A program made the translations under genes and the position numbers. The notes under the pieces are model-generated. The model saw only the letters and a program-made list of their open reading frames with translations, made no database searches and was not told the origin of the DNA. From NCBI GenBank assembly GCA_000165345.1, contig CM000434.1, positions 832,001 to 896,000 on the forward strand: a DNA stretch of 64,000 nucleotides. The letters run 5' to 3'. Shown piece by piece: positions 1 to 62,259 of this stretch (within the stretch, counting starts at the first letter, position 1; every line of letters begins with the position of its first letter).

Positions 1-163
1 TTCATAAATTTACGGAGAATTATATTGTCCAAAAAAGTGGAATATGAAGAACTACAGCAAAGGAAAATTTGATTTGGAAGTTTTATCAGGAAAAAAACAC
101 TGAGGGGGATGGCTTTCCCGAAAATAAATAGGCGCCATAAAGACAAAAAAAAAGTGGAAATAC

Positions 164-234
164 AGGAGCTACTGGGAATCGAACCCAGGCTACCGGAATC
201 AAAATCCGGGGTCCTACCGCTAGACTATAGCTCC
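164..234 (-). tRNA. tRNA-Gln (anticodon UUG)
   Basis: The reverse complement of 164..234 is GGAGCTATAGTCTAGCGGTAGGACCCCGGATTTTGATTCCGGTAGCCTGGGTTCGATTCCCAGTAGCTCCT. It has a 7-bp acceptor stem, a GTCT/GGAC D-stem and a CCGGA/TCCGG anticodon stem. The anticodon loop is TTTTGAT with U33, anticodon TTG and A37. The T-stem is CTGGG/CCCAG with loop TTCGATT. No CCA is encoded, as expected for a eukaryotic tRNA. Confidence 0.85.
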
Positions 235-487
235 TTACGCCGCTATGGTGATTTTATAAAGAGTTAATCTATACAAATCAAAATATTAAGCTTAATAAAA
301 CTCAGATAAATTTTTGTTCAAGAAGGAAATTAACAAGGCATTCTATTTAAAGATTAATAAATAGATTATTCAATTAAATATTTTGGAAAATAAACGAAGT
401 TTAAAAAAATTTTTGATGAACTATTATGGAAGAAAATGATCAATGTTAAGTTTTGAGAGATAAAAGTATTAAGAAATAAATAAATAT

Positions 488-3220
488 TTAGTAGTTACTA
501 TATAAAAGTGGGTTAGATACAGTCTTTGCATTAATTGGAGTGAATCTGAACCAAAAAGGCATCCAAGGAGTAATTCCAAAAGAAGAAGAATCTAGTATTA
601 ATACATCAGCATGCGTCCTGACTTGTGTATGTGTGGGATTATAAAGAGGATTTACAAGCTCTTTGTGGAATATTATAGAGGAATTTAGAGAAAGAAGGGA
701 TTCAACTTGGCCATTATCCAGATTACCTTTAGAATTATTCTTAATAGAATACATTATTGTATCCCATAAAGAAACCGTCGAATTTCTAGAATCTATACAA
801 AATCTCTCATACTCATTATCACAATGAAAATTCCCAAATAAACTATTATTTAAGTGATCAGCAATAATAATTAATAGGTTTGGATGAAATTGGAATTCTG
901 TTGGAAACTGATTATAGCATTGGTAAACACAATCTAACCATTGGATAAATATTGGAGATCTTTCTGACTCGTTTTCTAAACAAGATTCTTTGCCAGGAGT
1001 ACCAGATCTGGAATGAAATTTGTGACCAGAAAGTATGAATTCTTTTTCTATAAGTGAAAGAAATCCCTGAATTGTTCTGTAATAAGGGTCCATACAAAGC
1101 ATTGCAAGTGCTGTTAGTTGTGAAGTTCTATCCCATCCATCACTACAATGTACCAAAACTCCTTTTTCCCTAATCAAATGATCAACAATCTTATTTGATG
1201 ATGCAAGGATCATACTAATTAAGTCATACCAGCCTGTTGAATCTATTTCTGAAATCAACTTTAATCCCGTTAAATTCTCTGAATTATTCATTCTATTCAA
1301 AGAAGCAAGTACTGATTGAGCTTGAACAGAACTGATATCTCCTTGGTTAAGTAAATTCATCACTTTCTCAAAATTAGCATTACCAACACTCAAATCTTGA
1401 TTTGATGAAGTTTTTTGAATTACTGAAACCAACTTATTCCAAGAATCACGAACCTTATGGATATTTTCAATATTCAAAAACTCTAATTTACAATTGGTAT
1501 AATGATCAATATTCTCAAATCCAGCTCCTGTTGCTTTATTAGCAAATGCATTCAATTTTGGTCTAGCATCCAGTATTGCAAAAGGTCTTTCTTCTTTTGG
1601 GTCTCCATTATTTTTGTAAAAGCTGGAAATGGTTGTTATCATCATCTCGTCCTCAATACATCTTTTAAACGCAGATTTTGGCTGACTAGACCTCCATAGA
1701 GTGCACTTTAAATCTGGGTTTGTCCAGCTTAAAATTGGTATTCTTCCCTTTGATCTAAATGCTGCTACTTTAATTAGTTGTGAATCGGATATGTTTTCAG
1801 GAACCACAATTATTCTTGGGTATGAAGAACAAAGCTCGAAGTTTTGATTCACATTTGTGAATCTTAAAGGAAATCTTGAAGTATTTTCATTAATTAAACC
1901 TGATGATATTGGAACTCCTTGTCTATTATATTCTTTCAAAATATCAAACTCAAAAATCCCATTAATTGAAGAAAATAATGGTAAACTCTCAAAATTCTCC
2001 CTAAAAGTATACGAAAACAAGTTTTTATGCAAAGTCTCGTTCAGAATATTTTGAATACTATTTTGAATTAGCTTTTTGTCTTGCTCAGAGCTTACTATTA
2101 GAATTTGGATCGATCTCAAATCTTTGGTTGAAATATCCAATGTGTAAGTACAACTTTTGGAATTCATATTTATTTGGCCATTCTGCCCAATTCCTGAACC
2201 TCCAATTGTTGTACCTAATGACCCTACTAGATTCAAGTTATTTCCAATATATTGTCCTGGAATTGTATGGTTATTACTGCCTTCTGTGTTTACTCCATTA
2301 TTATCATTACCAGAAATCAAAGAGCTAACCCCAATCTGAGTTATTGAATGAATTGGAATATGAAGAAAGCCTGATTTGTACATCCAAGATACTGAAAATC
2401 TTTTTACTATTGTCAATGCTTTATTGTTAATATTCTTTTGGAAAAGAGGAGCAAGAATTATTCTAAAGTTTGTCATAATGAAGGATCCAAAAATAGGACC
2501 TACCAGACCTTGAGCAGAAATTCCACACTCTTTACTAAATAACAACAACTTTTCACCAGGAAGAAGTATAATACTCATATTTTTAGTTATATTCTCCGCA
2601 TCAGCCTCACAAATTTCCAGACTTGTATTTGATATTGGACCTTTATTATTATGAATCTTGGAAAGGATCTCTGACCATCTGGATAGATCCTGAGCCTTTT
2701 GATTATTGCTATTACTCACTATCATATTCGAAGTGGTTTCTCTTAATGCATTCTGTATTTGAGAACTAATATTCTGCGTTACTGTGTTTGCTAAAGAAGA
2801 AAATAAACCTGAAACACTTGTGGATGTTCTTAAATTTGAACTGGATTTATTAATATTTGTTGTGGGGTTACTGATATTACTTCGGCTCTCTGGTACTATT
2901 GTTGGAGAAGCTAGCATAGGCTTAACTTCAACTGATCTTCCTTGTGTGCTTGGAAATGGATCAAATAATGAAAGATCTTCTAAAGTTTTATTCAACGGCT
3001 TTTTATCCATATCAAAGTTCTGATATTGTGAATTTAAGTTATTATTATCTCTACCTTCAAAACAATCATTCAAGGATGAAACCTGCTTGTATATTGAAAG
3101 AGGATCATTACCAGCTTCTAATGACTGAAGATTTATTTCTTCACTCCCCTTATACACTGAGTTATATAATCTATCAGTGGAGTCATTTTCAGTACTAATA
3201 CTTCCTAATTCCCCATTCAT
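488..3220 (-). CDS. Myotubularin-related phosphoinositide 3-phosphatase (MTMR family)
   Basis: The long minus-strand ORF 488..3259 in the track contains the myotubularin active-site signature VHCSDGWDRTSQ (CX5R P-loop), followed by a conserved helical region. The N-terminus is Asn/Ser-rich low complexity. The track start at 3259 is a TTG codon. The first real ATG (NSYN-M-NGELG) is at 3220..3218. Confidence 0.8.
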   Translation of the reverse strand: MNGELGSISTENDSTDRLYNSVYKGSEEINLQSLEAGNDPLSIYKQVSSLNDCFEGRDNNNLNSQYQNFDMDKKPLNKTLEDLSLFDPFPSTQGRSVEVKPMLASPTIVPESRSNISNPTTNINKSSSNLRTSTSVSGLFSSLANTVTQNISSQIQNALRETTSNMIVSNSNNQKAQDLSRWSEILSKIHNNKGPISNTSLEICEADAENITKNMSIILLPGEKLLLFSKECGISAQGLVGPIFGSFIMTNFRIILAPLFQKNINNKALTIVKRFSVSWMYKSGFLHIPIHSITQIGVSSLISGNDNNGVNTEGSNNHTIPGQYIGNNLNLVGSLGTTIGGSGIGQNGQINMNSKSCTYTLDISTKDLRSIQILIVSSEQDKKLIQNSIQNILNETLHKNLFSYTFRENFESLPLFSSINGIFEFDILKEYNRQGVPISSGLINENTSRFPLRFTNVNQNFELCSSYPRIIVVPENISDSQLIKVAAFRSKGRIPILSWTNPDLKCTLWRSSQPKSAFKRCIEDEMMITTISSFYKNNGDPKEERPFAILDARPKLNAFANKATGAGFENIDHYTNCKLEFLNIENIHKVRDSWNKLVSVIQKTSSNQDLSVGNANFEKVMNLLNQGDISSVQAQSVLASLNRMNNSENLTGLKLISEIDSTGWYDLISMILASSNKIVDHLIREKGVLVHCSDGWDRTSQLTALAMLCMDPYYRTIQGFLSLIEKEFILSGHKFHSRSGTPGKESCLENESERSPIFIQWLDCVYQCYNQFPTEFQFHPNLLIIIADHLNNSLFGNFHCDNEYERFCIDSRNSTVSLWDTIMYSIKNNSKGNLDNGQVESLLSLNSSIIFHKELVNPLYNPTHTQVRTHADVLILDSSSFGITPWMPFWFRFTPINAKTVSNPLLYSNY

Positions 3221-3259
3221 ATTGTATGAATTATTTAGAATTATAAATACCAATATCAA

Positions 3260-3675
3260 TTACTTATTACAATAAGAAGCAACAAAAAGATTTCAAGATT
3301 TGGTGGATTCTTCTTTATCCTAAATTAGATTACTTTTCCACTCTTCTTATATCATTCAAGTCACCCTGAACCTCATCAAACAATATATTCAATTTCCCTA
3401 ACTCTTTAAATCATTCAGCAAATTCTTTAATCCGCACTTCATCTATTATTGAAAGTTATACTTTATATGTTAATACAAGAATATTATTAATTAACCATAT
3501 TGGCGCCATAACTCCCCTTAGAAATTGAGAATATTTTTATTATAGGGGGAAAAATGGCAAAGTAAAAAAAAAAAAAAAAGTTATATACCGGTAATGACGT
3601 GTTAATTTTTTTTGAGAAATTATATTAAAAAAATAAAATTGCTTAAAAAGACCAGAATTATTATAAAAGGAAAAT
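3260..3675. promoter_or_regulatory. Divergent intergenic promoter region (myotubularin minus, Derlin plus)
   Basis: It contains the E2F-like TTGGCGCCA at 3500..3508, ATACCGGTAATGACGTG at 3584..3601 and an A16 tract at 3565..3580. The same motifs recur in other intergenic regions of this window. Confidence 0.4.
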
Positions 3676-4503
3676 ATGTTCAATGATTCATCTCCACAAG
3701 GTTGGTATAAGAACTTACCTCCAATCACGAGGAGTATCCTCACAATAACATTTTTTTCAACTTTATTAATAACTTTTGGTATGTTGAATCCATGGTATAT
3801 TCTCTTTGATTGGGAGTACATTTTTCGCAAGGCACAAATTTGGAGATTCCTCACAAGCTTCTTTTTTGTGGGTCCATTTAGTATTGGATGGATTATGAGC
3901 CAATGGATGTTTACATCATTTTCATCAAAATTAGAGAGAAGTGGGTCGGTTGGTTCCTCATCTGGGTCTTATTTGTATTTTATATTGATTTTAATGACAG
4001 GAATTAACATAATAGGTACTGCTTTTGATTACCCCACAGGAAGAAAAATTGGAGGCTCTTCATTGATTTTTGGTATAATTTATTACTGGAGTAAGAAATT
4101 CCCAACTTCTTTGGTAAGTATTTGGGGATTCACTTTGCAAGCTTATCAGTTACCATATGCATTGTTATTTTTGGATGTTTTGACTGGTAACTCTTTGATT
4201 GACGATTTGATTGGATTATTAGCTGGACATTCTTATTACTATATTAGAGATATTATATATGAGAATAACGCAAATAACTTCTTAGCCAGAACTCCAAAGC
4301 ATTTTGACAAATTTGTTGACTACTCTTCTTTACTGATTAAGAACTATGTCTATGACTTTTCATCTTTAAATGGCCATCCTAATGTAATTAACTATCCAAA
4401 TTCAAATGTAAATAGAGCTGGTTCTTCTTACAATCCATTTTCAGGAAACTCTGCTCAACCTAGAGCCTTTTCAGGAAGGGGATTTAGGCTGGGTTCAGAT
4501 TAA
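3676..4503 (+). CDS. Derlin (Der1-like ERAD membrane protein)
   Basis: The 275-aa ORF starts at an ATG. It has four hydrophobic segments and carries the Derlin hallmark WRFLTSFFF (WR motif). The C-terminus ends GFRLGSD, which matches from memory the GQGFRLGDQ tail of Derlin-1. Confidence 0.8.
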   Translation: MFNDSSPQGWYKNLPPITRSILTITFFSTLLITFGMLNPWYILFDWEYIFRKAQIWRFLTSFFFVGPFSIGWIMSQWMFTSFSSKLERSGSVGSSSGSYLYFILILMTGINIIGTAFDYPTGRKIGGSSLIFGIIYYWSKKFPTSLVSIWGFTLQAYQLPYALLFLDVLTGNSLIDDLIGLLAGHSYYYIRDIIYENNANNFLARTPKHFDKFVDYSSLLIKNYVYDFSSLNGHPNVINYPNSNVNRAGSSYNPFSGNSAQPRAFSGRGFRLGSD

Positions 4504-4851
4504 GCTCAGAAAAGTTGAACTAGAAGATATATAAGTTAGTATTTTCTTACCATAGTATGGCTTTCCTTTATTATTTTAACTGCTAGTTTATAAATCTAAT
4601 ATAATTTTACATCCTAGTTATATATGTATATGATTATTTCAATCGATAAGAATTTGAAGATACAGGAGGAGAGAAACAATGAAGAAGAAAAAGGTGATCG
4701 TTTTCTAGATAATTATTTAGTTGCTATTAGCCGAGTAGAATTTTGCATTGATAGTATTGATATATAAATAATTCAATAGATCTATATACCCAATTAAGGG
4801 AACACAAGACTCCATCGAATAAATTAACTACTCTCTTCATCAATCTTTCTT

Positions 4852-6120
4852 TTATACTGTCCTGGTAGCTTTTTCATATAAAACATCAACGACATTTGAA
4901 AGATTGTCGAATGTAGAGATAAGTTCAGGAATCTTTAAATTAGAATTCTGATTCTCATCATAGATAGTAAGAACTTCAGTTCTTTGATCAATATTTCCCT
5001 GAATCAACTTGTTTAAAATCATTTCAATAACCTTGGAATAAACTCTTTCGGAAGAAAGATTGAGGAATAAAGCAAGTTGAGAGATTTCAATGTGTGAATA
5101 AGATTCCAAAATTCTTAAAATATTCTGTTCCATCAAACTTTCATACAAGTTATTAATATGTCTGTGAATGACCATATCACTGCTTAACTCGGTTTCATAA
5201 TTCTTTAAAACATCCTCGAACATACTAAGAGATCTATTTTCGCAGCAAGATGCAACCATTCTCAAGGCTTCAATCTCTCTCATCTGGAACTTAACTTTAT
5301 TTTTACCAGAAAGTAGAGAAGCTAAATTATTGGTTTGTTGGGACATGATCTTTGATAACAACATATACTTTAATGATTGCAAGGCTCTTTCATCATTTGC
5401 AATATTAAATGCCTCGAAAGCTTCATAAAAGTACGAGAATGATGTCTTAAAATCTTCTTCATCAGCAAGTATAATGCCAGATTGTAGATCTATATCAGCC
5501 TGTAAGAGAGGAGGACAGTGAATGGAGTTTGCATTAGTTCTAGCTGCTGTCAAAGCTGCCTTAGACTTGGGTAAGTTACGAATTCTATACTCAAGTTTAC
5601 TTTCTATCAAATAAGCCTCCACTAATAGAATCTTATCGTCAACCTTTTTAACTTCTTTAATCAACTTTTCAATATAGTCTAAACCTTTAACAAATTGACT
5701 AGAGTTCAAATAAACCATTGCTAAACGAGCAGTAATTCTATGTCTCAAGAATGTACGCTTCTCTTCTAAGCACCATTCAATACACTCCAAACAAAGTTGT
5801 TCTTGTAGTTTTTCGGTATCTGGAATTTTTGACATCATATCCATTAGATTTCGAATAATCTTTGCAACTCTAGCTTTTGGTAGTCCACCAATTATTGGTC
5901 TAATAGTTTTAATAAGCTCTTTCAATTCATTTGCCATGCCTTGTTTCATATATATTTCTCCTAATGTATAGATTGCCTGCTCTTGAATTTTGGTTCCATC
6001 TTCTATTTCATCCAAGTTGTCTTTTTTAATCAATTCGATTAATATTGGAATTGATAATTTGAAGTCTGTCTCCATCAGAGACTTTGCCTTCTCAAAATCA
6101 TCCTTAATACTTATTTCCAT
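4852..6120 (-). CDS. 26S proteasome regulatory particle non-ATPase subunit Rpn6/PSMD11 (PCI domain)
   Basis: The 422-aa ORF starts at an ATG. It aligns end to end with Rpn6/PSMD11 as I remember it. Matching motifs include LCLECIEW, LPKSKAALTAARTNANSIHCPP, QSGIILADEEDFKTSFSYFYEAFEAF and LKYMLLSKIM, and the C-terminal PCI region ends VVDVLYEKA. Confidence 0.85.
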   Translation of the reverse strand: MEISIKDDFEKAKSLMETDFKLSIPILIELIKKDNLDEIEDGTKIQEQAIYTLGEIYMKQGMANELKELIKTIRPIIGGLPKARVAKIIRNLMDMMSKIPDTEKLQEQLCLECIEWCLEEKRTFLRHRITARLAMVYLNSSQFVKGLDYIEKLIKEVKKVDDKILLVEAYLIESKLEYRIRNLPKSKAALTAARTNANSIHCPPLLQADIDLQSGIILADEEDFKTSFSYFYEAFEAFNIANDERALQSLKYMLLSKIMSQQTNNLASLLSGKNKVKFQMREIEALRMVASCCENRSLSMFEDVLKNYETELSSDMVIHRHINNLYESLMEQNILRILESYSHIEISQLALFLNLSSERVYSKVIEMILNKLIQGNIDQRTEVLTIYDENQNSNLKIPELISTFDNLSNVVDVLYEKATRTV

Positions 6121-6376
6121 TATTACTACTCACTCAATCCCTAGTTTGTTTTTCTTTCTTCCTTTCAAATAAGGAGGGTGGCTTTTGGTGAAATCAAAAT
6201 TTGAATTTGTCGCACCTTCTTACTTGTCAAACTTTAAGAGTTGATTCTCAAATTAATGTATGAAATTATTAATTTAAAAAAAAAATTGTCGTTTTAAATA
6301 ATAATTTTGTATTTTTCCCCCTTTATTATTATGTTACAATTATTCTCTTCTTGAACTTATTAGCTTAGATGCATAT

Positions 6377-6388
6377 TGGGCGCGCCCA
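6377..6388. promoter_or_regulatory. E2F-like palindrome TGGGCGCGCCCA in the Rpn6 / 6583-gene divergent intergenic region
   Basis: It is a perfect GC palindrome inside an otherwise AT-rich spacer. Confidence 0.35.
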
Positions 6389-6582
6389 AATAACCCCACG
6401 AAATACATAAATGTGCTGTTCAATGAATATCGAAAATAGATTAACATGCCAGAATAAATGTGATATTATAACTTTAGCTTCATTGAATAATTTGAATACG
6501 AAATGTGTCATTATTATTATTGAATTATATTGAAAGTTTGCTATAAGTGTTGTATGTATAAATATTTTGATGAAAAAAGAAA

Positions 6583-7588: not shown

Positions 7589-7735
7589 AACACTAGAAAT
7601 TGTCGAACTTGGTCTTTTACCAACATTTAATATTATTTGTCTACTTCAACTTTTATTTACTCTTTTTTTAATTATTAATACTATTTCTATTTCAAAAATA
7701 TTTTGTCCACATGAAATTTATTAATTTTCACACAT

Positions 7736-7849
7736 ACCGGTACTAAATATTTCTGATGACGTGTATAATTTTTTTTAATAAGTTTGCATGTGGAAATTGT
7801 CATACCGGTATATGCAATTACTATTATGTGTGGAAAAATTGCATGTAAG
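7736..7849. promoter_or_regulatory. Motif cluster ACCGGT x2, TGCATG x2, GACGTG
   Basis: ACCGGT occurs at 7736..7741 and 7804..7809. TTTGCATGTGG is at 7793..7803, GACGTG at about 7759 and GCATGTAAG at 7841..7849. The cluster lies about 520 bp upstream of the AAMP-like gene. Confidence 0.35.
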
Positions 7850-8366
7850 AAGTAGATGTTTAGAAGTGGTTGCATTGATGAATTTTAAATATTAAAAATA
7901 TAATTTCGAGAGTTAATTAAAAAAAAATGCATATATAATAATAATAATTGTGGATGTAAATTTAATAAATAATGTTTCTTATTTATTATTGAATTGGCTA
8001 TAATCCAGAAAATAATCTACAATAAGTGAAATTGAGAAGAAAGTAACCTATGCTTAAAAAATACAAGTAAAAAAGTAAATAATTTGAATCAAGGGTAATA
8101 ACTAAAAATCAACAAATAATCATTTTTATCTACCCTTATATATTGCAAGAGATTCATTAATATTGATCGACTCATAATATTTAATATTAGCAAATCGGAA
8201 TTTTTTTTTATTCCATAATTCTAAAATGGTAATTAATTGCCTTTTTTAGACTGGGCGGGAAGTCGAAATATTATTTAAAGTTTAAGCTTGACATTAAGAA
8301 AAAAAAATTTGGATTTGGTGTTATTTAGGAAAAAGTTGTGAGAATTTGTTTGTTTAAGTACTAAAG

Positions 8367-9725
8367 ATGGATATGGAAATAGATTCAAATATTTCAGATG
8401 AAGAATATACTGGAATGGATGAAGATCCAGTATTGATAGTATCTGGAGATGAGCTTGATAGGTAAGTTAAAAGAAAATAACATTAGAACTTGATTAATAT
8501 TAAAATCGCACTAAATAAAACTTTTAGGGATGATGAAGATGAGGAAATGCCACTCTTTGATGTTCCTGATGAATCATCAGCTACAATCTTATCAATTGAT
8601 TCTCCAATTTGCTGTATAGATATAGATCCTACAAGAAGAGGTCGAATATTATTCGGAGGATGTGACGATAAAGCATATGTATCAAATTTACCAGAAAATC
8701 CTGTCTATTCTAGTGAGCAGGGAACTGAGAGACTTAACTTAGGTTTTGAAAAAGTATTTCAAGGTCATTCAGATACAGTTTCATGCGTTTCTTATTCAAC
8801 GGATGGAAAATATTTTGCAACAGGAGGTTGTGATGGAACTATAAGAGTTTATGGTAATGAAGTTTCAAATGAAGGCCAACTTATTTCAATTCTGGAGGGT
8901 CCATCTGATGAGCTTGAATTCATAAGGTGGCATCCGCGTGGACCATGTATATTTGGAGGTGGAGTAGATGGAACAGGATGGCTATGGATGGCTCCTGATG
9001 GAAGAGTATTATCTGTACTTTCTGGTCATGGAGATAGTATTACATGCGGAGATTTTAGTAATGAAGGTAAAATAGTTTGCACAGGATCTCTAGATGGAAG
9101 CGTAATTATTTGGAATCCAAAAAATGGAGAAAGTTTGCACAAAATTACAAGAAATAGTTTTGTTAATAACGCAGGTGACTCATCTTATTTAGAGGAATTG
9201 GGTATAGTTTCAATGAGAAGTCACAAAAAGAATCCGTTACTTGCTGTTGGGTTTACTAATGGTTTATTTTCTCTAATTCAACCTGATACTGGCAAAGTTC
9301 TAAGCTTAAACAACAGACATCATGATTCTCTAGATTGCATTGAATTCATTAATCATTTAGAAGATCCTCTGTTAGCTACTGGAGATATGTCTGGAGAATT
9401 AATTGTTTGGAATTATGAATACAATAGAGAAAATTTTGTAATGAAGAATCAGGAATTGGAACATTCAAATGGAGTCTTGCCTGGTATTACTAGTATATGC
9501 TGGGGTGGAGATAGAAACAATACCTTAATTGCAACGGGGTGTTTAGATGGAACTATTAGATTATGGGACTTTAGAACAGGAGAAAATGTTAAAATTCTTA
9601 AAGGGCATAAAAGTGGAATATTATCCATGAAAATCGTAGAATTCGGTTTTCAAGGAACCAACGTATTAAGGATGGTATCTACAGGAGATGATGGAAGATG
9701 CTTACTTTGGGATGTAAGAATGTAA
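8367..9725 (+). CDS. AAMP/Sqt1-like WD40 repeat protein (probable ribosomal uL16 assembly chaperone); join(8367..8461,8528..9725)
   Basis: Exon 1 runs from ATG 8367 to a GTAAGT donor at 8462 and encodes an acidic N-terminus, MDMEIDSNISDEEYTGMDEDPVLIVSGDELD. A 66-nt intron ends at the acceptor CTTTTAG (8527), and the reading frame is preserved as AG|G. The WD40 body shows block similarity to AAMP: FGGCDDKAYV, GHSDTVSC, EFIRWHPRGP, DGTGWLWM and TGSLDGSVIIWN. Confidence 0.75.
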
Positions 9726-25593: not shown

Positions 25594-26180
25594 CTTTATA
25601 ATTCACCTTGATAACTTCAAGTTCATTAAATTTTCATATTATTTGCAGTTTATCTTAATCCAATTTAAATAGTAAATTATCTCATTAATCAGACTTGGAC
25701 TCTGCCTATGAGTTTATTACTTTATTTGATTTCTGAATAACTCTATCGGTGTGTTCAGTTTAATGTTATTGAATTTATTTCAATAGTGTCATTTCAAAGT
25801 TCTGGCACCTAGCTCCTTATAATAGCAAGCTGTATTAATCTTTTTGAAAATGTCTTATTAATTACTGCTGAAATACTAATAACCCGTTTTATTCAACTAA
25901 ATTACCTTATTAAAATTAAATTTCTTTCCTATTTCATTTATTAACATCGCCTTCACCATTAAACTCCCCCCATGTCGGTACCATAAAATAGCAATTTTTC
26001 CGCTCATTAATTGTAAAATTAATTTGCCCACATTAATTTGACAAAAAATTTCAAATCTTTAAATTAATTTACCATTTTTTGTTTTTAATTTAATTTCTTT
26101 AATAATTTTTTTTTTAACCTTTTTAACCCAAAACAATACAATTGCAATATAAATTGTCCACATTGAAAAAAAAAATTTAT

Positions 26181-26284
26181 TGCATGCATGCAATTTACAC
26201 GTAAGATTAAAAAAAGTGTGCATGTGGATGAATAACAATTGAACGAAGCTAATACCGGTATGTGAATTTTACATATTTACGTGG
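26181..26284. promoter_or_regulatory. Motif cluster TGCATGCATGCA, ACACGTAAG, ACCGGT, TACGTGGG upstream of the giant ankyrin gene
   Basis: TGCATGCATGCA is at 26181..26192 and ACCGGT at 26254..26259. ACGTG elements are at about 26199 and about 26279. Confidence 0.35.
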
Positions 26285-26338
26285 GAGAAAAAAAATTATT
26301 TGGAGAAAAAATAAATTATAAAATTAATATTTTAAAAG

Positions 26339-27752: not shown

Positions 27753-28393
27753 TTAAATCTCCTCTCCACTTTCCTCTGTATCAATATCGCTTATATTCAT
27801 TCCATTATCATCCACAATGTATGATTGCATCTTGCAATTTTCCAATGGTGCTTTTTGAATATTCATTATCTATATAAAGAAAAATTAATTAAAACAATAA
27901 ATTTTTTCGAAATTATTAATAAAAACTCTCAATAATCACTTACCTTCTCGACTAAAGAATAGTCACCTTTCGAACATTGGTCGTACATTTCACAAATCAA
28001 CTCAGCGACCTCCAAATCACTATCATCTTCTACAATAGTAGAAAATCTTGTTTCCATTGCTTCCATTAAGAAATTTGCCAAATTATTCGAATTTACCTTC
28101 CTTCCTATAAATTATTAAAAGTTAATTTTTCAATGATTTTTTCCCACCTCTAGTAATAAAGAGTAACAGACGTTTCTACCTACCTGATTGAAAAGACATT
28201 ATTACTTCCTGAATTAATTCTTCACGCTTCTTATTTGCAAACCTGCCTGACCATCCTCCTTCTACTGAAAGGTTCAAAATAGTCCTTAAAATTGTTACTA
28301 TTGATCAAGAATAACATTACAGAACTCAACTCACCATGTGGAAAATACTTGGTTGACTCCTTGTACAAAAACTTGAAAACGTTGTGAGTCCAT
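27753..28393 (-). CDS. TSR2: Pre-rRNA-processing protein TSR2 homolog (eS26 chaperone family), multi-exon; exons 28458..28335, 28264..28184, 28104..27944, 27869..27753; 5-prime end unresolved
   Basis: This gene is absent from the ORF track. Four exons are joined by introns of 70, 79 and 74 nt with GTGAGT, GTAGGT and GTAAGT donors, YAG acceptors and consistent phases. The product reads ...NVFKFLYKESTKYFPHVEGGWSGRFANKKREELIQEVIMSFQSGRKVNSNNLANFLMEAMETRFSTIVEDDSDLEVAELICEMYDQCSKGDYSLVEKIMN... and ends in an acidic tail. The central blocks match the TSR2 core as I remember it (AVENSWGG, FDTVVEDGS). The only ATG (28393..28391) lies in a different frame from the spliced downstream frame. Confidence 0.55.
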
Positions 28394-28556: not shown

Positions 28557-28654
28557 TTGGCGCCTCTTTGTCGAAAAAGTCATGCACAGGTATATGCAAT
28601 ACTTTTGCATGTAGCTATATAAAATGTCATGCACTCATGTGGATAACACGTAAT
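28557..28654. promoter_or_regulatory. E2F-like TTGGCGCC plus four GCATG/CATGCA elements and ACACGTAAT, upstream of TSR2
   Basis: TTGGCGCC is at 28557..28564. CATGCAC, TGCATGTAGC and GTCATGCACTCATGTGG lie in 28581..28642, and ACACGTAAT is at 28646..28654. Confidence 0.35.
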
Positions 28655-33772: not shown

Positions 33773-34096
33773 TTAATCAAAGAAATTACAATATCTCCTT
33801 CAAAAATTGTCTAAGATGTTGCTTTTGTTCTCATTTGGGATGTTACCGCCAAATTCATTTTACTGCATTTTTGAATCTGTCAAATCAAAAATTAAAAATG
33901 ATTTTTAAAAAAAAAAATTATTGTAATTGTAATTGTACTGAGTTGAGAGCTTTCATACAAATAAATCGCTCAGATCAGCCATTTAACATTTATTTTACCG
34001 ATTCCATTGGAGCAAATATTGGATATTCATCCTTTTTAAATAAATATTTAATTTTGATTGCTTTCTTGAATAATTACATGCAAAAAATACGCATGT

Positions 34097-34121
34097 GGCG
34101 CCATTTGGTTTGAGCGCCATG
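34097..34121. promoter_or_regulatory. Tandem E2F-like sites TGGCGCCA and GAGCGCCATG in the UBX / eS30 divergent spacer
   Basis: The sequence reads GCATGTGGCGCCATTTGGTTTGAGCGCCATG. Confidence 0.35.
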
Positions 34122-34383
34122 TCTCGTTTTTGAGACGCCTTTAAGTATAGGTATTAAAAAGGAATAAATTTTGTCAATAATAGTATAGAAAACATTTAAA
34201 AATAATTGGATAGAAGGTTTAAATATTAATTTAAATAGTAAATAAAAGCTAATACTAATACGTATATTTGGAAATTAATAATAATAAAGTTTATAATAGT
34301 CCCTGCCAGAAGGGTTGAATTTCTTCCAATTGTTAAAGTTTATTTCATTAGTCGATAAATCTTATTTTAATAAATTCTGAAAT

Positions 34384-34560
34384 ATGGCTAAAGCACACGG
34401 TTCATTAGCTCGTGCAGGTAAAGTAAAGAATCAAACTCCACGTGTTGAGAAACAGGAGAAAAAGAAGGCTTTGACTGGAAGAGCCAAGAAGAGACAACAA
34501 TATAACAGAAGATTCGTCAGTGTTGTTGCTGGACGCAGAAAATGCAATCCACAATCATAA
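34384..34560 (+). CDS. RPS30: 40S ribosomal protein eS30 (58 aa)
   Basis: The ORF is below the track's size cut-off. It encodes [58 protein letters not shown], which matches the conserved eS30 sequence ([41 protein letters not shown]) closely. Confidence 0.85.
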
Positions 34561-35222: not shown

Positions 35223-35294
35223 GGGGTTATCCGGGAATCGAACCCGGGACCTCATGTACCCGAAACATGAATCATACCACTAGACTAACAACCC
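35223..35294 (-). tRNA. tRNA-Pro (anticodon CGG)
   Basis: The reverse complement is GGGTTGTTAGTCTAGTGGTATGATTCATGTTTCGGGTACATGAGGTCCCGGGTTCGATTCCCGGATAACCCC. The acceptor stem GGGTTGT/ATAACCC has one G-U pair. The anticodon stem is CATGT/ACATG with loop TTCGGGT, giving anticodon CGG. The T-arm is CCGGG-TTCGATT-CCCGG. The D-arm GTCTAG(T/G)GGTATGATTC matches the conserved eukaryotic tRNA-Pro D-arm as I remember it. Confidence 0.85.
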
Positions 35295-47391: not shown

Positions 47392-48102
47392 AAATATGTT
47401 ACAAAGAATAAATAACAAAGATTCGCTAAAATTTAGAATTTTGATTTTTTTTCCAATTTTTTTTTAAAAAAAGGGAATAAATGTAAAAATAAAATCATCG
47501 TAATAAGTGTCAAATACTACAATCGAAAGAAAAGAAAATCGATCTGGATATTTCTCTTCCATTTTAAATAATCATATTCAAAAAATAATATTATAGTTAA
47601 CTGAATATCATGGTAAATATATTTGGTGAAGAGTAATATTTTCAAATATTAAGTTAAACTCGATAAAAAAAAAATAATTTTTTGAAATATTTACAATATA
47701 TATCAATATTAAATAAATTATTAAAGTTGGCGCGTAAATGTTAATGTCAAATAGAAATAGCCAGATACTTTAAAACAGTCAAAAAGGGAAGATAAGTAGT
47801 TATTATATATTAAATTTCAATTGAAATTTAATATGTTTTTGCGTCAAAAATTTTAATATAAAAATTCAAAAATAGTTATTTGAGACTAAAAAAAAATTCA
47901 ACAAATACTTTAATATTTAATAAAAAGACTTTCAATATATAAGTTATACTCTTAAATAACAATTTATTATAGTAAAAGATTCATTGATAAAACAATTGAC
48001 TAAAAGCTATTCTTTTTGGTATTTATGAGCAAAAGTTCAAGTGTAGTTTTCTTTGGGTTTTATTGGGATTAGACAAAATAGATGAGACTGTGAGTATACA
48101 AG

Positions 48103-50520: not shown

Positions 50521-50669
50521 GGATCAAATATAGTTAAATATTTAAAATGATCATTTATCAATCTTTTTTTTTACTATTTTTGAATATTTCTTGTATATTA
50601 TTTAATGTATATAATTGTAGAATTTTTCTTTCCCCCCACATACACACACATGTGGACAAATAATTCAAT

Positions 50670-50739
50670 ACCGGTATTTCGTAATATGACAAAATTGCAT
50701 GCACATACGTGTAAAAAAAGTTTGCATGCAATTACGTGG
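50670..50739. promoter_or_regulatory. Motif cluster ACCGGT, TGCATGCACATACGTG, TGCATGCAATTACGTGG
   Basis: ACCGGT is at 50670..50675. TGCATGCA occurs twice, each followed within 10 bp by ACGTG. The cluster is about 700 bp upstream of the 51438 gene. Confidence 0.35.
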
Positions 50740-51437
50740 TAGAAAGTAGATTATTATGCGAATAAGTAAATGCGATTAGTTTTTATAAAGTTAGTTTTAA
50801 TATATGAAATATAAGATTTTTTTTTCTTCTAAATTTGTTTCATCAGAAAAAAATTGGTAAAGAATAAATTTAGTTGAATAAAAAATAATAATAATAATAG
50901 GAAAACTTTAACTTTGATAAATAGTGGTTAAGTGAGTTATTATGGCCTTTAGCTACAAAAAAAATGGCTACACAGTTTGGCGGCAAGTGCGTAGAAATTG
51001 TGGATGTGTGTGAGAATGGAAATAAATTAAGCTGGAGAAAAAAAAAAAATCGTATTTAATAAAGTAAATGGAAAAGGCCTGCTCAAATAGAGAGGAAAGA
51101 AAGACCAAGAAAGAGAAATAGTATTGATCCAGCGAGAAGTGAAGAAAAGTAGGCGAGTAAAGATAGGAAAGAACGAAGATTGTGAAGTTGAAATATTGGA
51201 GTAGATGAACATAAATTGAGCCATAATAAAGAGGTATATATACATATATCTATATATGTATATATGCAATATATACGTGGAATGCATAATTAATAGAGAT
51301 ACAAGTTTCGAAGCAAAGGCATTTTCACGCACAAAATAATTTATTTTCTAGGTATTAAATTAAATTACATGAAATTAAATCGGAAATTTCAAAAGGAAAG
51401 CAAATATAATTGAAATTTTAGTGGATAATTCAATGAG

Positions 51438-53533: not shown

Positions 53534-54324
53534 TTGGATAACTTTAAAAATAACAAGTTAAAAGGGCAAATGTTTATTTAATATTTTGAAATGTATAGTT
53601 TATCTACAGTACAGAGCTCATTGTTTGAGTGATGAACTTTAAGTCTTGGCTAATGGGAGAAGCAGGAAAGTCAGAACAGGAAACAAAAGATTTAACTTCT
53701 TTAGAAAATTAAAATCTTTTTATTAGACAGATTAGGATAACTATTTCAGATAAATGTTTATAAACACCCATAAATTCCAGTAATATTTATGGAGATACGT
53801 GGTAGTGGCGATATGGTTGGCGGGCCATAAGAGGAAAAGTTATAAAATAACTCAAAGCAGATAAGCCAAAGAGTTGTTAATTAAGAGCGGAAAGATTAAG
53901 TACAATAAAAAGAAATAGAAATTTATGTTAGATGATGGAACATTAGAATTAGGAAATGTGTTGATTCAGTTTAATTCCTTTAAATTTTTTAATATCAAAT
54001 TTGCATGTAAATTTTTTTTTTATCAAATAATTCAGTATCGATAATATATAAATTTATGCTTGGAATTTAGCCAAAAAGGCGCCAACCAGGCTTGCATGTC
54101 TCGTATTCGAGTATACTAAGGATAGTATATTATATTGGATATTGGGGGAATTAATAATATAAAAAAGATAGGCGCATGGACAGAGAGGATACTGCACACC
54201 AATATTGTATATATAAAGAAATAACCCACTTTATTTAGTTGAATCTTAGATAGATAAACTAATATTTTCGATATTTCTTAATTTTTTTTTTAAAAATTTG
54301 GAAGTGAAGCAAAACTTTTGCTAA

Positions 54325-55386
<1,062 letters not shown>

Positions 55387-55962: not shown

Positions 55963-56019
55963 CCGGTATGCAAGTGGAGTGCAAAGAAATTACTAATTTG
56001 CATGTTTTTGGCGCCAAAG
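55963..56019. promoter_or_regulatory. ACCGGT + TGCATG + palindromic E2F-like TTTGGCGCCAAA upstream of hexokinase
   Basis: ACCGGT is at 55963..55968, TGCATG at 55999..56004 and TTGGCGCCAAA at 56009..56019. The cluster lies about 215 bp upstream of the hexokinase ATG. Confidence 0.4.
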
Positions 56020-56234: not shown

Positions 56235-57791
56235 ATGGAAGAGGAAAATCAAGCCAAGAGGCTGTTTGATTTATATGAAGAATATTTTTTCCTTTCAAAT
56301 TTAAAGCTGCTGGAGTTGGTTGATGATTTTCACAAATCTTTAGAAGACGGACTTGAAAATCACGCAAATCGACTAAAAATTGACAAATACCATTCCAATT
56401 ACAAGCCTTTTAAAATGTTAGACTCTTGTGTTGATAGACTTCCAACTGGGAAGGAAAAAGGAGTTTATTATGCTATTGATATGGGTGGCACTAATTTACG
56501 ATGTGTTAGAGTAAATTTACTTGGTAATGGCCAAAGTGAAACAAAATTTAAAAAGGTTAAATTGTCAGAAATGAAAGTGTCTTCTACTGGGAAGGTTGTA
56601 AATAGCAACAAAATTTCCAAAGTTGATCAAGAAGTCAATATTTTTGATAAAACTGTATCTTCAGAAACAATGTTTAATTCAATTGCAGTTTTCTTTAATG
56701 AGTTTTTGGATGAATGTGGCGACTTAAATGATTTGACCAATGATAATAATGTAGGCAATCTCCCATTAGAAGTTGGCTTCACCTTTTCTTTTCCTATCGT
56801 GCAATCTAAAATTGCAAGTGCAAAACTGGTAATATGGACAAAAGAAATTGAAACAGGTAGATTAACTGATGATCCTGTTGAAGGAAAAGATATTGGTGAT
56901 TTATTGAATTTAGCCTTTAAAAGAAATGGAGTACCAGCTCAATGTAAATGCGTTTTAAATGATACAGTTGGAACCCTTATATCAGCAATGTATGATTTAA
57001 ATATTAATAATTATTGCGACAATAACCACTCTTTAAAAGTTAATTTTCCAAATAATATATCTGAAAATCAACCATTAATTGGAATTGTGGTTGGAACTGG
57101 AGTAAATGCTTGCTACCTTGAACCAAATTCTTCAAATTTTGGTTATAAAGGAGTTATTATTAATACAGAGTGTGGAGACTTTTATTCAACCAAATTACCC
57201 ATAACTGATTGTGATTACTCTATGGATTGGTTTAGTGATAATAGAGGAGAACAGATATTTGAAAAAATGATTAGTGGAACTTATTTAGGAGAAATCTCTC
57301 GGTTATTAATTATCAATTTTTTAAAAAACAAAACTCCAGAGATTTTCTTCCAAAAGAATTCATTAAAAACTGAACATATTGCCAAAATTATTAGCCATTT
57401 CAATGATAATCATCAAAAATATAACCAAAACCATGATTTAAAGTCTATTGAAAATTATTTAAAGGAAACATTTTCTTCAAATCTTGATCATAATTCCACT
57501 TATATTATTGCAAAAATATCACAGATGGTACTCATGAGAGCAGCATCTCTTGTCTCAGCCATTATTGCTGCATTTTTCAAAAGGTTTAATAAGCCACGCA
57601 ATCAAATTACCATTGCCATAGATGGATCAGTTTGGACTAAAATACCCAAATTCCAAAAATACGTTAAAGATTCACTCTCATCTTTGATTCAAGAGAGCGG
57701 ATATCTTGGCTCAATACATTTTTATGAATCAGATGATGGATCTGGAAGAGGTGCTGCTATTCTTGCTAGCACTACAGTCAATACACATTGA
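56235..57791 (+). CDS. HK: Hexokinase
   Basis: The hexokinase signature blocks are all present: AIDMGGTNLRCVRV (phosphate 1), LGFTFSFP, the sugar-binding LNDTVGTL, the connect block GIVVGTGVNACY, and INTECGDF. Confidence 0.9.
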   Translation: MEEENQAKRLFDLYEEYFFLSNLKLLELVDDFHKSLEDGLENHANRLKIDKYHSNYKPFKMLDSCVDRLPTGKEKGVYYAIDMGGTNLRCVRVNLLGNGQSETKFKKVKLSEMKVSSTGKVVNSNKISKVDQEVNIFDKTVSSETMFNSIAVFFNEFLDECGDLNDLTNDNNVGNLPLEVGFTFSFPIVQSKIASAKLVIWTKEIETGRLTDDPVEGKDIGDLLNLAFKRNGVPAQCKCVLNDTVGTLISAMYDLNINNYCDNNHSLKVNFPNNISENQPLIGIVVGTGVNACYLEPNSSNFGYKGVIINTECGDFYSTKLPITDCDYSMDWFSDNRGEQIFEKMISGTYLGEISRLLIINFLKNKTPEIFFQKNSLKTEHIAKIISHFNDNHQKYNQNHDLKSIENYLKETFSSNLDHNSTYIIAKISQMVLMRAASLVSAIIAAFFKRFNKPRNQITIAIDGSVWTKIPKFQKYVKDSLSSLIQESGYLGSIHFYESDDGSGRGAAILASTTVNTH

Positions 57792-57937
57792 CCTTTTTAT
57801 AGTCCATCCTACTTTTTTGTAATTTCATTTCCGGTCATTTATTGTTTATACTTATTGTTCTTATTCATTGAAAATAATAGTAATTAATTCATCTTATTCA
57901 GATTTGTACATGCCAATGTTCATAGAAATAACAAAAA

Positions 57938-57955
57938 TTTGGCGCGCGCGCCAAA
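57938..57955. promoter_or_regulatory. Perfect 18-bp palindrome TTTGGCGCGCGCGCCAAA (E2F-like), about 230 bp upstream of CFIm25
   Basis: It was read directly from the sequence and is the only GC-rich element in that spacer. Confidence 0.4.
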
Positions 57956-58184
57956 TTTTTATTTTATTTAGAATTTAAAGAATTTCAATATTAATTTAAG
58001 GTTTTATTCTCAATATTTTTTTTTTTTTAATTAATAAATACCTTTTAAAGTTTAAATAATCCATTTGTTTGAAGTTGGAGTCCATTCTTGGCAGATATTT
58101 CTGCATAGATCTTTTAGGTCATAATTAATTTTAATCTTTAATTGAAAGTATTTTTTATGCACATTTTTTTGAATCTTTATACAA

Positions 58185-59018
58185 ATGCAGGAGGGTTCGA
58201 ATAATGTTAGTAACAATCTGATGAACGATAATAAAATTGAGGAGGATGTTTTAGAGCAGCCAACATTTTTAACAAACCAAAGTCTTTTGAACGAAGAGCA
58301 GAGTATGGCTACAAACGTTGATCATGAACCATCATGGTTAATTTATCCATTGAAGAATTATGGAATTCGAGTTCAAGATAATAGTGACGAAATTCAATCA
58401 AGTATCCCAATTAATGAAATGAATGGGTTTAATGTAAAGGTTGATAACTTTTTAAAAGATGGAATTGGACGTAGCGTTGCTGCATTAATGCTTACTCATC
58501 GTTATTTATGTCCACATGTAGTTTTACTTCAGAATGATTTAACGAGTGAATGGATGCTTCCAAATTGTACTTATAAGGCCTGGGAAAATCCTCGCATAGT
58601 ATTAGCAAACTTTTTAAAGTCAATGTTCCTTACAAGTTCGAGCATTAATAGTAATACTAATAACAGTGGAAGTAATAATGGCAATAATAATAGCTCGACA
58701 AATAATAACAATATAAATAATGCTTGTTCTGATAATGCAGTGGAAGTTGGGGAATACTTGGGAACTTGGTGGAGAACTGAGTTTAATTATTCTCCTTTGC
58801 CTTATTTACCTCCCCATTCAACAAGGCCCAAAGAAACAATAAGGATTTACCAGGTTATTCTTCCTCCAAAATTGCTATTTAAATTACCAAAGCACCATGT
58901 GTTAAAGAGCTTACCTCTGTTTGATTTGGACCCAAATATATTTGGAATAGCATGCGGTAGTATTCCCCAGCTTATTTCAAGATTTCAAATTCAATCAATG
59001 GTTCAGTCGGATAATTAG
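58185..59018 (+). CDS. Cleavage factor Im 25 kDa subunit (CPSF5/NUDT21, Nudix-fold mRNA 3-prime processing factor)
   Basis: It shows block identity to CFIm25 as I remember it: IYPLKNYGI (LYPLTNYTF), GRSVAALMLTHRYLCPHVVLLQ ([21 protein letters not shown]), GTWWRTEFNYSPLPYLPPHSTRPKE ([25 protein letters not shown]) and LPLFDLDPNIFGIACGSIPQLISRF. An Asn-rich insert is present. Confidence 0.8.
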   Translation: MQEGSNNVSNNLMNDNKIEEDVLEQPTFLTNQSLLNEEQSMATNVDHEPSWLIYPLKNYGIRVQDNSDEIQSSIPINEMNGFNVKVDNFLKDGIGRSVAALMLTHRYLCPHVVLLQNDLTSEWMLPNCTYKAWENPRIVLANFLKSMFLTSSSINSNTNNSGSNNGNNNSSTNNNNINNACSDNAVEVGEYLGTWWRTEFNYSPLPYLPPHSTRPKETIRIYQVILPPKLLFKLPKHHVLKSLPLFDLDPNIFGIACGSIPQLISRFQIQSMVQSDN

Positions 59019-60545: not shown

Positions 60546-60791
60546 CTTGTATGTTGCACACTACTACGTTAAACTCTCTTTTATTTTATTTTGAATCTCA
60601 TTAGTTCTTTACACTTTAATTTCTCTTTAATTAATGTTTGTTTCAGAGTAGCTCCTACCTATATTGATGATTTGCAATTACTTTATTTTATTATTATTAT
60701 ATATACATGTAAATATTTACATATATATCTATATATATTTTTTTTTTGGTTTGAATTACATGTAATTATTGACTTTTCATGTTTTTTTATT

Positions 60792-60836
60792 TGCATGTAA
60801 ACACCGGTACGTGGCCTCTAGCAATAACCACGTAAT
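60792..60836. promoter_or_regulatory. TGCATGTAAACACCGGTACGTGG ... ACCACGTAA motif cluster in the aspartyl-protease / Rab1 divergent spacer
   Basis: ACCGGTACGTGG is at 60803..60814, flanked by TGCATG and a second ACGTA element. Confidence 0.35.
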
Positions 60837-61198
60837 AGGCGGTAAAAAAGCCAACCATTTGCCGCCAAAATACAGATAGCATGCTAATTATTTAAAATTT
60901 TGTAAGATTGCGGATTTTAAGGCAAATTAAAAGGAGGCAGGCTTTAATTTAAATAAGCTTCATGACAAAAAGTTGAGAAGAAAGAGATCTTATTTTTATT
61001 GAATATTTGTGTGTGTCTTTTCTCTTTTCAAAAGTATATTTGTCTCGAGAGAAAATTGAGATTATTCAGGAATAAAGTTGGTTTGTTTGAGGCATTTTGA
61101 TAAATAAAAGGAATAAGGGGTGTATAATATTCTCAAAATTAGAATATCATATACGCACACAGACATATTTGTTTATTTATTTACATATCAGGGTAAAG

Positions 61199-62095
61199 AT
61201 GTCAGCAGTTAGACAAAAGGAATAGTAAGTTGAGTATTTTTGGGCAAAGCGGGTATATTCATAACATGAGATAAAGATTGATTTTTGAAGTAAATATGAG
61301 GTGGAATATAATAGTGTAGATCTCATAAGTTTCTTGGCTTTTGCTCAGATCAGCTATTGGATGGCAAAATTCTAACATTATTAATTCATTTTTAGCGATT
61401 TTCTGTTCAAATTGGTTCTTATTGGAGATAGTGGAGTCGGAAAATCTTGCCTATTATTGAGATTTGCAGTAAGTTTTTACTTAAATTCAGGCAAATGTTC
61501 ATTCTTTGCCTAAATTCTATATTAGAGCGCAAAGTAATTTTCTTTTACTTAACAGGATGATTCTTTTACTGACAGCTATATCACTACAATTGGTGTGGAT
61601 TTCCGATTCAGAACTATCAAAATTGATGATAAAATAATAAAATTACAAATCTGGGATACTGCAGGACAAGAAAGGTTTAGAACCATTACTTCAGCATACT
61701 ACAGAGGTGCTGATGGAGTAGTACTTGTATATGATACAACTTCAACTTCATCTTTTGACCACATTGACGAGTGGGTAACTGAAGTTAACCGTTATACAAC
61801 CGACTCCACAAAAATCCTTATTGGAAACAAGTGCGATTTAACCTCACAGAAGATGGTTGACTTTGCTACCGGACAAAAAAAAGCTCAAGAGCTTCAAGTT
61901 GATTTCATGGAATCGAGCGCCAAAAATTCTACTAATGTCGAAGAATGCTTTGTAAACATAGCAAGAAAACTTCTAGAGAAAAAGCTGAAGAATGGCGAAA
62001 CTTCATCCAAACCCATTAATTCCCAGAATATCTACTTAAACCAGCATGGAGATGGTGGTTTAATTTCAGGTGTACTTTCTTCTTGTTGTAAGTAA
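61199..62095 (+). CDS. Rab1/Ypt1-family small GTPase; join(61199..61224,61396..61468,61556..62095)
   Basis: The track shows only the third exon, with a GTG start. Exon 1, ATGTCAGCAGTTAGACAAAAGGAATA|GTAAGT, is joined to exon 2 through the acceptor TTTTTAG (ending 61395). Exon 2 has a GTAAGT donor at 61469, and the next acceptor is TTAACAG (ending 61555). The product is [85 protein letters not shown]...GNKCDL...[12 protein letters not shown]...SSCCK. G1-G5 boxes and the Rab1 effector loop are all present. Confidence 0.85.
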
Positions 62096-62259
62096 TTTAA
62101 AATGATCCGTTAAATTTAGATGGCGCCAAATTCAAATAGAATAGTCTTGAATTTACAAATTCATTGAATACCAAAGGATTGCCAATATTAGTAAATTTCT
62201 TTAAGTAAACTCATTTTTTGAAACAATTTCTGTTATCTAATTGTATATAATGTACTAAT

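Follow-up and report, generated by a model that had tools for sequence, protein, structure and literature searches.

The stretch of DNA that was analysed here, referred to as the window, comprises 64,000 nucleotides (nt) of Cryptosporidium parvum chromosome 6 (contig CM000434.1 of GCA_000165345.1, positions 832,001 to 896,000). It covers the cgd6_3790/3800 region and corresponds to approximately 829,162-893,161 of CP029785.1 in GCA_031892065.1. The assignment to C. parvum is supported by hexokinase, GAPDH, Rpn6 and CFIm25, whose sequences are identical to those of C. parvum Iowa II/ATCC entries. A gene map was built from gene calls on identical C. parvum contigs together with Pfam scans, and the gene calls place 29 protein-coding genes on 75.8% of the window. 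The G+C content is 30.6% for the whole window, 0.320 for genic DNA and 0.259 for intergenic DNA, which makes up 24.2% of the window. Among the genes are Rpn6, TSR2/WGG, eS30, GAPDH, hexokinase, CFIm25 and a Rab gene followed by a SET-like gene, and the spacers upstream of many of these genes contain the palindromic element GGCGCC. An earlier description of this DNA, made from the letters alone (the original prediction), considered this element an E2F-like promoter element and a second promoter class that, next to an ACCGGT/TGCATG class, may partition genes into co-regulated sets. The gene labels used in that description (Rpn6, eS30, GAPDH, hexokinase, CFIm25, TSR2/WGG and Rab/SET) are correct according to the contig gene calls and Pfam.

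Number and location of the GGCGCC sites

An exact-match scan of the window revealed 11 copies of GGCGCC, at positions 131, 3502, 11338, 11591, 16028, 28559, 34097, 54078, 56010, 62122 and 63285, compared to a mean of 0.49 and a maximum of 4 in 100 dinucleotide-preserving shuffles of the window. Two additional sites carry a GC-extended core, GGCGCGCC (once, at 6379) and GGCGCGCGCGCC (once, at 57941), which brings the total of GGC(GC)nC sites to 13, with 12 in intergenic DNA and one inside a coding sequence (CDS). Of the 11 GGCGCC copies, all but one are intergenic (binomial P = 6e-6), and the density of 0.646 per kb in intergenic DNA versus 0.021 per kb in genic DNA amounts to a difference of approximately 31-fold, despite the intergenic DNA being more AT-rich. 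Under an order-1 Markov model, 0.18 intergenic copies are expected and 10 are observed, while 0.34 genic copies are expected and one is observed; the order-2 model raises the intergenic expectation to 0.35. The order-3 expectation (5.5 intergenic copies) was discarded because the tetramer counts on which it depends come mainly from the motif copies themselves. An equal frequency of GGCGCC in spacers and CDS after composition correction, which had been named in advance as evidence against the original prediction, was thus not found. The broader core SGCGCS shows the same preference, with 17 of 19 matches in intergenic DNA.

The scan confirmed that the palindromes are real and that the coordinates given for them earlier are correct to within 1-2 nt, with the element listed as TTGGCGCCAAA located at 56008. 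The second copy of a tandem reported at 34114 is, however, GAGCGCCA, a GGCGCC core with one mismatch. The palindrome of 18 base pairs (bp) described at 57938 (TTTGGCGCGCGCGCCAAA) is indeed perfect, but its true length is 28 bp (57933-57960). The original list of 13 sites had also overlooked the GGCGCC at 63285, in the CDS of the SET-like gene.

With respect to gene starts, 11 of the 12 intergenic sites share their spacer with one or more gene starts, at 138-617 nt upstream of a start codon (ATG). The exception is the site at 131, in a 3'-3' spacer beside a tRNA-Gln gene and away from the 5' end of any protein-coding gene. Five sites are found in divergent spacers, where they potentially serve two genes. 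A strict site is present in 10 of the 21 promoter-bearing spacers and in one of the eight convergent (3'-3') spacers, a contrast which on its own is not significant in a 64-kb sample (Fisher P = 0.11). When looser variants (GGCGGG, GGCGCG and GGCGCW) are included, at least one element occurs in 14 of the 21 promoter-bearing spacers. The sites also share their flanks: T at position -1 (A at +1) was observed in 14 of 20 symmetrised half-sites, giving the consensus T(T)GGCGCC(A)A, with TGGCGCCA at four sites and TTTGGCGCCAAA at one. All 13 sites have the form GGC(GC)nC and in this way agree with the E2F core [C/G]GCGC[G/C] with its 5' T and 3' A. The sites and the genes and tRNA genes around them are listed in Table 1.

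Table 1. E2F-type sites, protein-coding genes and tRNA genes, in window positions; distances are from site to ATG.
Feature	Position	Strand	Setting or source
GGCGCC (AATAGGCGCCATAA)	131-136		Atypical; 3'-3' spacer Pus10 (+) / myotubularin (-)
TGGCGCCA	3501-3508		Divergent spacer myotubularin (-) / Der1 (+); 287 and 174 nt
TTGGGCGCGCCCAA with 8-bp core GGCGCGCC	6376-6389		Divergent spacer Rpn6 (-) / 249-aa gene (+); 266 and 204 nt
TTGGCGCC	11338-11343		Upstream of SF-assemblin (-); 362 nt
GGCGCCA	11591-11596		Upstream of SF-assemblin (-); 615 nt
TTGGCGCC	16028-16033		Divergent spacer Ank670 (-) / Trx-domain gene (+); 547 and 617 nt
TTGGCGCC	28559-28564		Upstream of TSR2/WGG (-); 171 nt; GCATG at 16 nt
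TGGCGCCA (34096-34103) and one-mismatch GAGCGCCA (34112-34119)	34096-34119		Divergent spacer PUB (-) / eS30 (+)
TTGGCGCG, variant E2F-type core GGCGCG	47727-47734		Divergent spacer amylase-like gene (-) / 805-aa gene (+)
GGCGCCAA	54078-54083		Upstream of GAPDH; 289 nt; TGCATGTCTCGTATTCGAGTA 9 nt after the site
TTTGGCGCCAAA	56007-56018		Upstream of hexokinase; 225 nt; TTTGCATG before the site with a 5-nt gap
28-bp perfect palindrome AAAAATTTGGCGCGCGCGCCAAATTTTT	57933-57960		Upstream of CFIm25; 244 nt; 12-bp core GGCGCGCGCGCC at 57941-57952
TGGCGCCA(AA)	62121-62128		Just 3' of Rab gene; upstream of SET-like gene (719 aa); 138 nt
TGGCGCCA	63284-63291		Inside SET-like CDS, codons ATG GCG CCA AAA
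Rpn6	4852-6120	-	Contig gene calls/Pfam
TSR2/WGG	27753-28393	-	Contig gene calls/Pfam
eS30	34384-34560	+	Contig gene calls/Pfam
GAPDH (cgd6_3790)	54367-55386	+	Contig gene calls/Pfam; locus id from PMC1779779
Hexokinase (cgd6_3800)	56235-57791	+	Contig gene calls/Pfam; locus id from PMC1779779
CFIm25	58185-59018	+	Contig gene calls/Pfam
Rab	61199-62095	+	Contig gene calls/Pfam
SET-like gene (719 aa)	starts 62260	+	Contig gene calls/Pfam
tRNA-Gln(TTG)	163-235	-	Long convergent Pus10/myotubularin spacer
tRNA-Pro(CGG)	35223-35294	-	Convergent eS30/P5CR spacer

Conservation in other Cryptosporidium species

The syntenic GAPDH-hexokinase-CFIm25-AspP-Rab-SET loci of Cryptosporidium chipmunk genotype I, C. 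ubiquitum, C. canis, C. felis, C. bovis, C. ryanae and C. muris were located through their hexokinase orthologues, and four orthologous spacers (those upstream of GAPDH, hexokinase, CFIm25 and SET) were compared. In the intestinal clade, the E2F-type core is kept at similar distances from the ATG in all four spacers, each time in at least three other species and in up to six. For C. parvum, chipmunk genotype I, C. ubiquitum and C. felis, these distances are 289, 306, 307 and 204 nt in the GAPDH spacer and 138, 139, 136 and 101 nt in the SET spacer. With C. canis placed before C. felis in the same order, they are 225, 238, 225, 194 and 133 nt in the hexokinase spacer and 244, 240, 291, 237 and 291 nt in the CFIm25 spacer. 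At the aligned core position of its GAPDH spacer, C. canis has GGCGGC. The hexokinase core is GGCGCC in five species and GGCGGC in C. bovis and C. ryanae, and the latter two species keep GGCGCC upstream of CFIm25 and SET. Upstream of SET, TGGCGCCAAA is identical in C. parvum, chipmunk genotype I, C. ubiquitum, C. felis, C. bovis and C. ryanae.

The mean per-column identity to C. parvum is 57-65% in the GAPDH, hexokinase and CFIm25 spacers and 78% in the short SET spacer. In the hexokinase spacer the motif is the best-conserved 6-nt window among 843, and in the CFIm25 spacer the 12-nt GGCGCGCGCGCC ranks in the top 3 of 382 windows. These values bear directly on the explanation that the pattern is a functionless by-product of composition or chance, to which we assign next to no probability: the exact core is conserved within spacers that are otherwise 57-65% identical per column, none of the 100 shuffles reached 11 matches and the roughly 31-fold density is found in the more AT-rich compartment. 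What this explanation has in its favor is that a single 64-kb sample was used, in which the contrast between spacer classes alone does not reach significance.

The site upstream of CFIm25 also bears on a possible role of DNA structure. According to this explanation, the palindromes act through a cruciform at the long palindrome or Z-DNA at the alternating GC run, for example as nucleosome-excluding or origin-like elements. Every core is palindromic, and the CFIm25 palindrome, perfect over 28 bp, includes 10 bp of alternating GC, as such an explanation would have it. However, most sites are palindromic over 6-8 bp only, which is too short for a cruciform, and the other species keep only the 12-bp core of the CFIm25 palindrome. 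This core, GGCGCGCGCGCC, is unchanged in C. ubiquitum, C. canis and C. felis and has a one-nt difference in chipmunk genotype I, while the A/T arms are not conserved (e.g., AAATGGCGCGCGCGCCTCCC in C. ubiquitum). The retention of the GC core without the arms argues against a role of the long palindrome as such, and the cruciform reading of this site was rejected on these grounds. In addition, a symmetric core is what is expected for a heterodimer of two related winged-helix domains, as the E2F-DP structure is summarized in PMC3734150. Overall, an action through DNA structure is considered very improbable.

The conservation is not genus-wide, since the orthologous spacers of C. muris are mostly without GGCGCC. 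This difference between the gastric C. muris and the intestinal clade suggests a turnover of sites or a different motif usage. The C. muris spacers compared are at locus positions 3943-4596, 5617-6000, 7672-8927 and 12414-12607, and in the one upstream of GAPDH, GGCGCG and AGCGCC are the only forms present.

Pairing with GCATG and sites away from gene starts

GCATG was found within 30 nt of six of the 12 intergenic sites, compared to 1.3 expected for random intergenic positions (P ~0.001). At the site at 11591, TGCATG lies 12 nt away (11609-11614) and its GCATG core 13 nt away, and in the eS30 spacer the first copy directly adjoins a GCATG, with CATGTCTCG after the second copy. Some of these arrangements are kept between species: TTTGCATG-N5-GGCGSC upstream of hexokinase (55999-56015) occurs in seven species, and GGCGCC followed by TGCATGTCTCGTATTCGAGTA upstream of GAPDH occurs in five. 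The TGCATGTCTCGTATTCGAGTA element, which holds an inverted repeat (CTCG-N4-CGAG), is conserved in the GAPDH spacer from C. parvum to C. felis. Exact copies of CATGTCTCG are limited to two in the window, each after an E2F-type site, upstream of eS30 (34118-34126) and of GAPDH (54095-54103). With one mismatch allowed, CATGTCTCG has four matches in the window compared to 4.2 expected, and it was rejected as a general motif.

TGCATG and ACCGGT are each over-represented in the window, and so is the ApiAP2 motif AP2_1, TGCATGCA, with 47 matches versus 26 expected. AP2_1 occurs in the same spacers as the E2F-type sites and is, like these, over-represented, but it differs in sequence, is bound by AP2 domains in vitro (PMC4117751) and is reported to be absent from peaks of the assay for transposase-accessible chromatin with sequencing (ATAC-seq) in sporozoites (bioRxiv 10.1101/2025.01.17.633476). 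The ten copies of ACCGGT (1.6 expected) are located at 3587, 7736, 7804, 16370, 26254, 36465, 50670, 55962 and 60803, and at 39880 in a CDS; nine copies are in promoter-bearing spacers, mostly near TGCATG.

These distributions allow the proposed partition of genes by motif class to be assessed. Some spacers do hold one motif type only: those at 25594-26338, 50521-51437 and 60546-61198 have TGCATG/ACCGGT only, and those at 3221-3675 (with one ACCGGT), 6121-6582, 57792-58184 and 62096-62259 have an E2F-type core without TGCATG. However, the two types are often paired, as the GCATG counts show. In published expression data, the E2F motif is present upstream of 161 of 200 expression clusters, peaking at any sampled time point (PMC3734150, PMC4117751), and its presence alone is therefore a poor classifier of expression class. 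A combinatorial reading fits better than a partition of genes into co-regulated sets.

Two of the 13 sites, that at 131 and that at 63285, do not fit a simple promoter role. The site at 131 lies approximately 27 nt beyond the 3' end of the tRNA-Gln gene, past a T-run. Pus10 (+) ends to the left of the window and myotubularin is on the minus strand, which makes the spacer convergent; a protein-coding promoter was rejected for this site since the only nearby gene is tRNA-Gln. The second tRNA gene of the window, tRNA-Pro(CGG), has no E2F-type site close by. The site at 63285 is located in the CDS of the SET-like gene, 16 nt after TGCATGCATGCA (63257-63291). Six Cryptosporidium species share the stretch ATGGCGCCAAA, encoding M-A-P-K, without a single difference, while synonymous positions close to it vary; the C. 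muris sequence is ATGGCACCTAAG. GCG accounts for 1.8% of the alanine codons in the genes of the window, and this rare codon is kept at 63285 in the six species. This single, post hoc case hints at a constraint at the DNA level, possibly from an internal or antisense cis-element.

A third location away from gene starts is TGCATGCGCATGTTTGCGCGGGGATTGGGCGGGA at 18554-18586, which combines an AP2-type motif with two E2F-type variants (TTTGCGCG and GGCGGG). It is found in a 228-bp 3'-3' spacer (18373-18600) between the Trx-domain gene and a 2330-aa ankyrin gene, with no annotated start nearby. The sites at 131 and 63285 and TGCATGCGCATGTTTGCGCGGGGATTGGGCGGGA may serve as promoters for transcripts that are unannotated, antisense or internal or, in the case of TGCATGCGCATGTTTGCGCGGGGATTGGGCGGGA, non-coding.

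It is possible, though in our judgment rather doubtful, that the E2F-type sites are not an independent class at all but form part of conserved composite modules, in which they are combined with ApiAP2-type GCATG at short, fixed spacing, and that such modules are also under DNA-level selection within CDS. The arrangements that would be examples of such modules are TTTGCATG-N5-GGCGCC (hexokinase), GGCGCC-N9-TGCATGTCTCG (GAPDH) and TGCATGCATGCA-N16-TGGCGCCA (SET-like CDS). If this were true, E2F and AP2 factors would control genes cooperatively, and there would be internal or antisense promoters that have so far gone unrecognised.

The E2F/DP reading and its published basis

The GGCGCC sites belong to an E2F motif family that has been published for C. 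parvum, found again here on the chromosome of its first report and in part at the same genes. Among the upstream motifs of C. parvum, 5'-TGGCGCCA-3' shows the strongest over-representation (PMC3734150; PMC4117751), and Bankier et al. 2003, quoted in PMC3734150 and PMC12246861, had described it as over-represented in the non-coding DNA of chromosome 6. All ten glycolysis genes that were studied, cgd6_3800 and cgd6_3790 among them, carry a GGCG-core motif in their upstream regions (PMC1779779), so the hexokinase and GAPDH upstream regions of the window were part of the set from which Mullapudi 2007 obtained this motif. The E2F interpretation appears in Bankier 2003 (as relayed by the later papers), Mullapudi 2007, Oberstaller 2013/2014 and a 2025 ATAC-seq preprint (Xiao 2025). 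The published family (TGGCGCCA / [A/T][C/G]GCGC[G/C][A/T]) and the sites of the window share organism, chromosome, core, flanks and restriction to upstream non-coding DNA, and nothing essential differs between them. The features by which membership of the family can be recognized, namely the core with its flanks, upstream over-representation, location in promoter-bearing spacers and conservation in orthologous promoters as a sign of purifying selection, were all found for the sites in the window.

Cryptosporidium is reported to be the sole apicomplexan genus that retains E2F/DP (PMC4117751, bioRxiv 10.1101/2025.01.17.633476, PMC12246861). The search for a homologue that the original prediction had proposed is already answered in the literature: C. 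parvum has two E2F and two DP proteins (PMC12246861), identified as cgd1_1560 and cgd6_1430 for E2F and cgd7_3650 and cgd8_1850 for DP (PMC3734150, bioRxiv 10.1101/2025.01.17.633476, PMC12246861), and these are expressed mainly early in asexual development (PMC12246861). The Pfam scans that were run for the gene map detected no E2F or DP protein among the scanned proteins of the window. In sporozoites, the E2F motif dominates the ATAC-seq peaks; bidirectional promoters make up more than half of these peaks, and no AP2 motifs were observed in them (bioRxiv 10.1101/2025.01.17.633476). One further paper, PMC11337648, mentions E2F only as the E2F-gene promoter in a DiCre construct and holds nothing on the motif.

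Taken together, the sites are very probably E2F-type cis-regulatory elements in promoter-bearing spacers of a compact genome, of the form T(T)GGCGCC(A)A with GC-extended variants, that work through E2F/DP. Their enrichment, location in promoter-bearing spacers, flank preference and conservation across species are direct observations from the present comparison. Occupancy by E2F/DP and an effect on transcription would be expected from the identity with the E2F consensus and from the published ATAC-seq data and expression clusters. In the mechanism considered most likely, E2F/DP winged-helix heterodimers would bind the symmetric SGCGCS core, and the bound heterodimer would open or mark a short, often bidirectional promoter a few hundred bases upstream of start codons, where it may often act beside an ApiAP2-type GCATG site. 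The label of E2F-like promoter element is thus upheld by the spacer bias, the T/A flanks, the positional conservation and the published E2F interpretation, but its extension to a separate class that partitions genes finds little support.

Several points weigh against the E2F/DP reading. The sites at 131 and 63285 fall outside the simple promoter pattern, the contrast between promoter-bearing and convergent spacers is by itself not significant, and C. muris mostly lacks GGCGCC in the orthologous spacers. In the literature, no direct binding data for C. parvum E2F/DP were found from chromatin immunoprecipitation, electrophoretic mobility shift assays or protein-binding microarrays. In addition, according to a 2025 review, experimental confirmation exists for very few of the regulatory components (PMC12246861), and for this reason our confidence in E2F/DP is not placed higher.

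There is some room for a different reader of the sites, in which case these would be functional promoter elements recognized by a factor other than E2F/DP, be it a protein of the ApiAP2, Myb or zinc-finger type or a general factor with a role in marking start sites. E2F/DP binding in Cryptosporidium rests on inference (PMC12246861), the sites are frequently located tightly next to GCATG, an ApiAP2 motif, and the clusters with the E2F motif peak at all time points, unlike what is expected of a cell-cycle-specific regulator (PMC3734150). However, the C. parvum AP2 domains that were studied on protein-binding microarrays gave TGCAT, CACACA and G-box motifs and not GGCGCC (PMC4117751), the motif agrees with the E2F consensus down to the T/A flanks, and it dominates in the one apicomplexan genus reported to keep E2F/DP. 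A non-E2F factor is therefore regarded as improbable, and binding by E2F/DP is preferred.

In the current view, the E2F motif drives a large part of early asexual-stage transcription, which makes the sites relevant to gene control in a major diarrhoeal pathogen. To the published motif, the present comparison adds the conservation across species, the pairing with GCATG in place of a separate class, and named promoters, i.e., those of hexokinase, GAPDH, CFIm25 and SET. The conserved GC-extended core and the conserved intragenic copy are minor additions. The positional conservation over seven other species, the conserved GC-extended 12-bp CFIm25 core, the close GCATG pairing and the conserved CDS copy are details without mention in the cited motif papers, with Bankier et al. 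2003 considered as far as it is quoted in the later ones.

Compared to animals and plants, both shared and different properties are observed. The canonical E2F/DP site has a 6-bp symmetric CG core with T- and A-rich flanks and the consensus TTTSGCGCSAAA (PMC3734150). The C. parvum motif shares the symmetric SGCGCS core, the T-rich 5' and A-rich 3' flanks and the location in promoters, often near the gene start. In contrast to the animal and plant systems, it is found upstream of many kinds of genes (glycolysis, ribosome, proteasome and RNA processing) rather than in a cell-cycle/DNA-replication regulon, and no Rb-family partner is known in apicomplexans (PMC3734150). The forms of the site differ as well: the strict GGCGCC (11 copies, or 13 including the GC-extended cores) dominates in the window over the asymmetric GGCGGG that is common in plants and animals, of which eight copies (GGCGGG/CCCGCC) are present.

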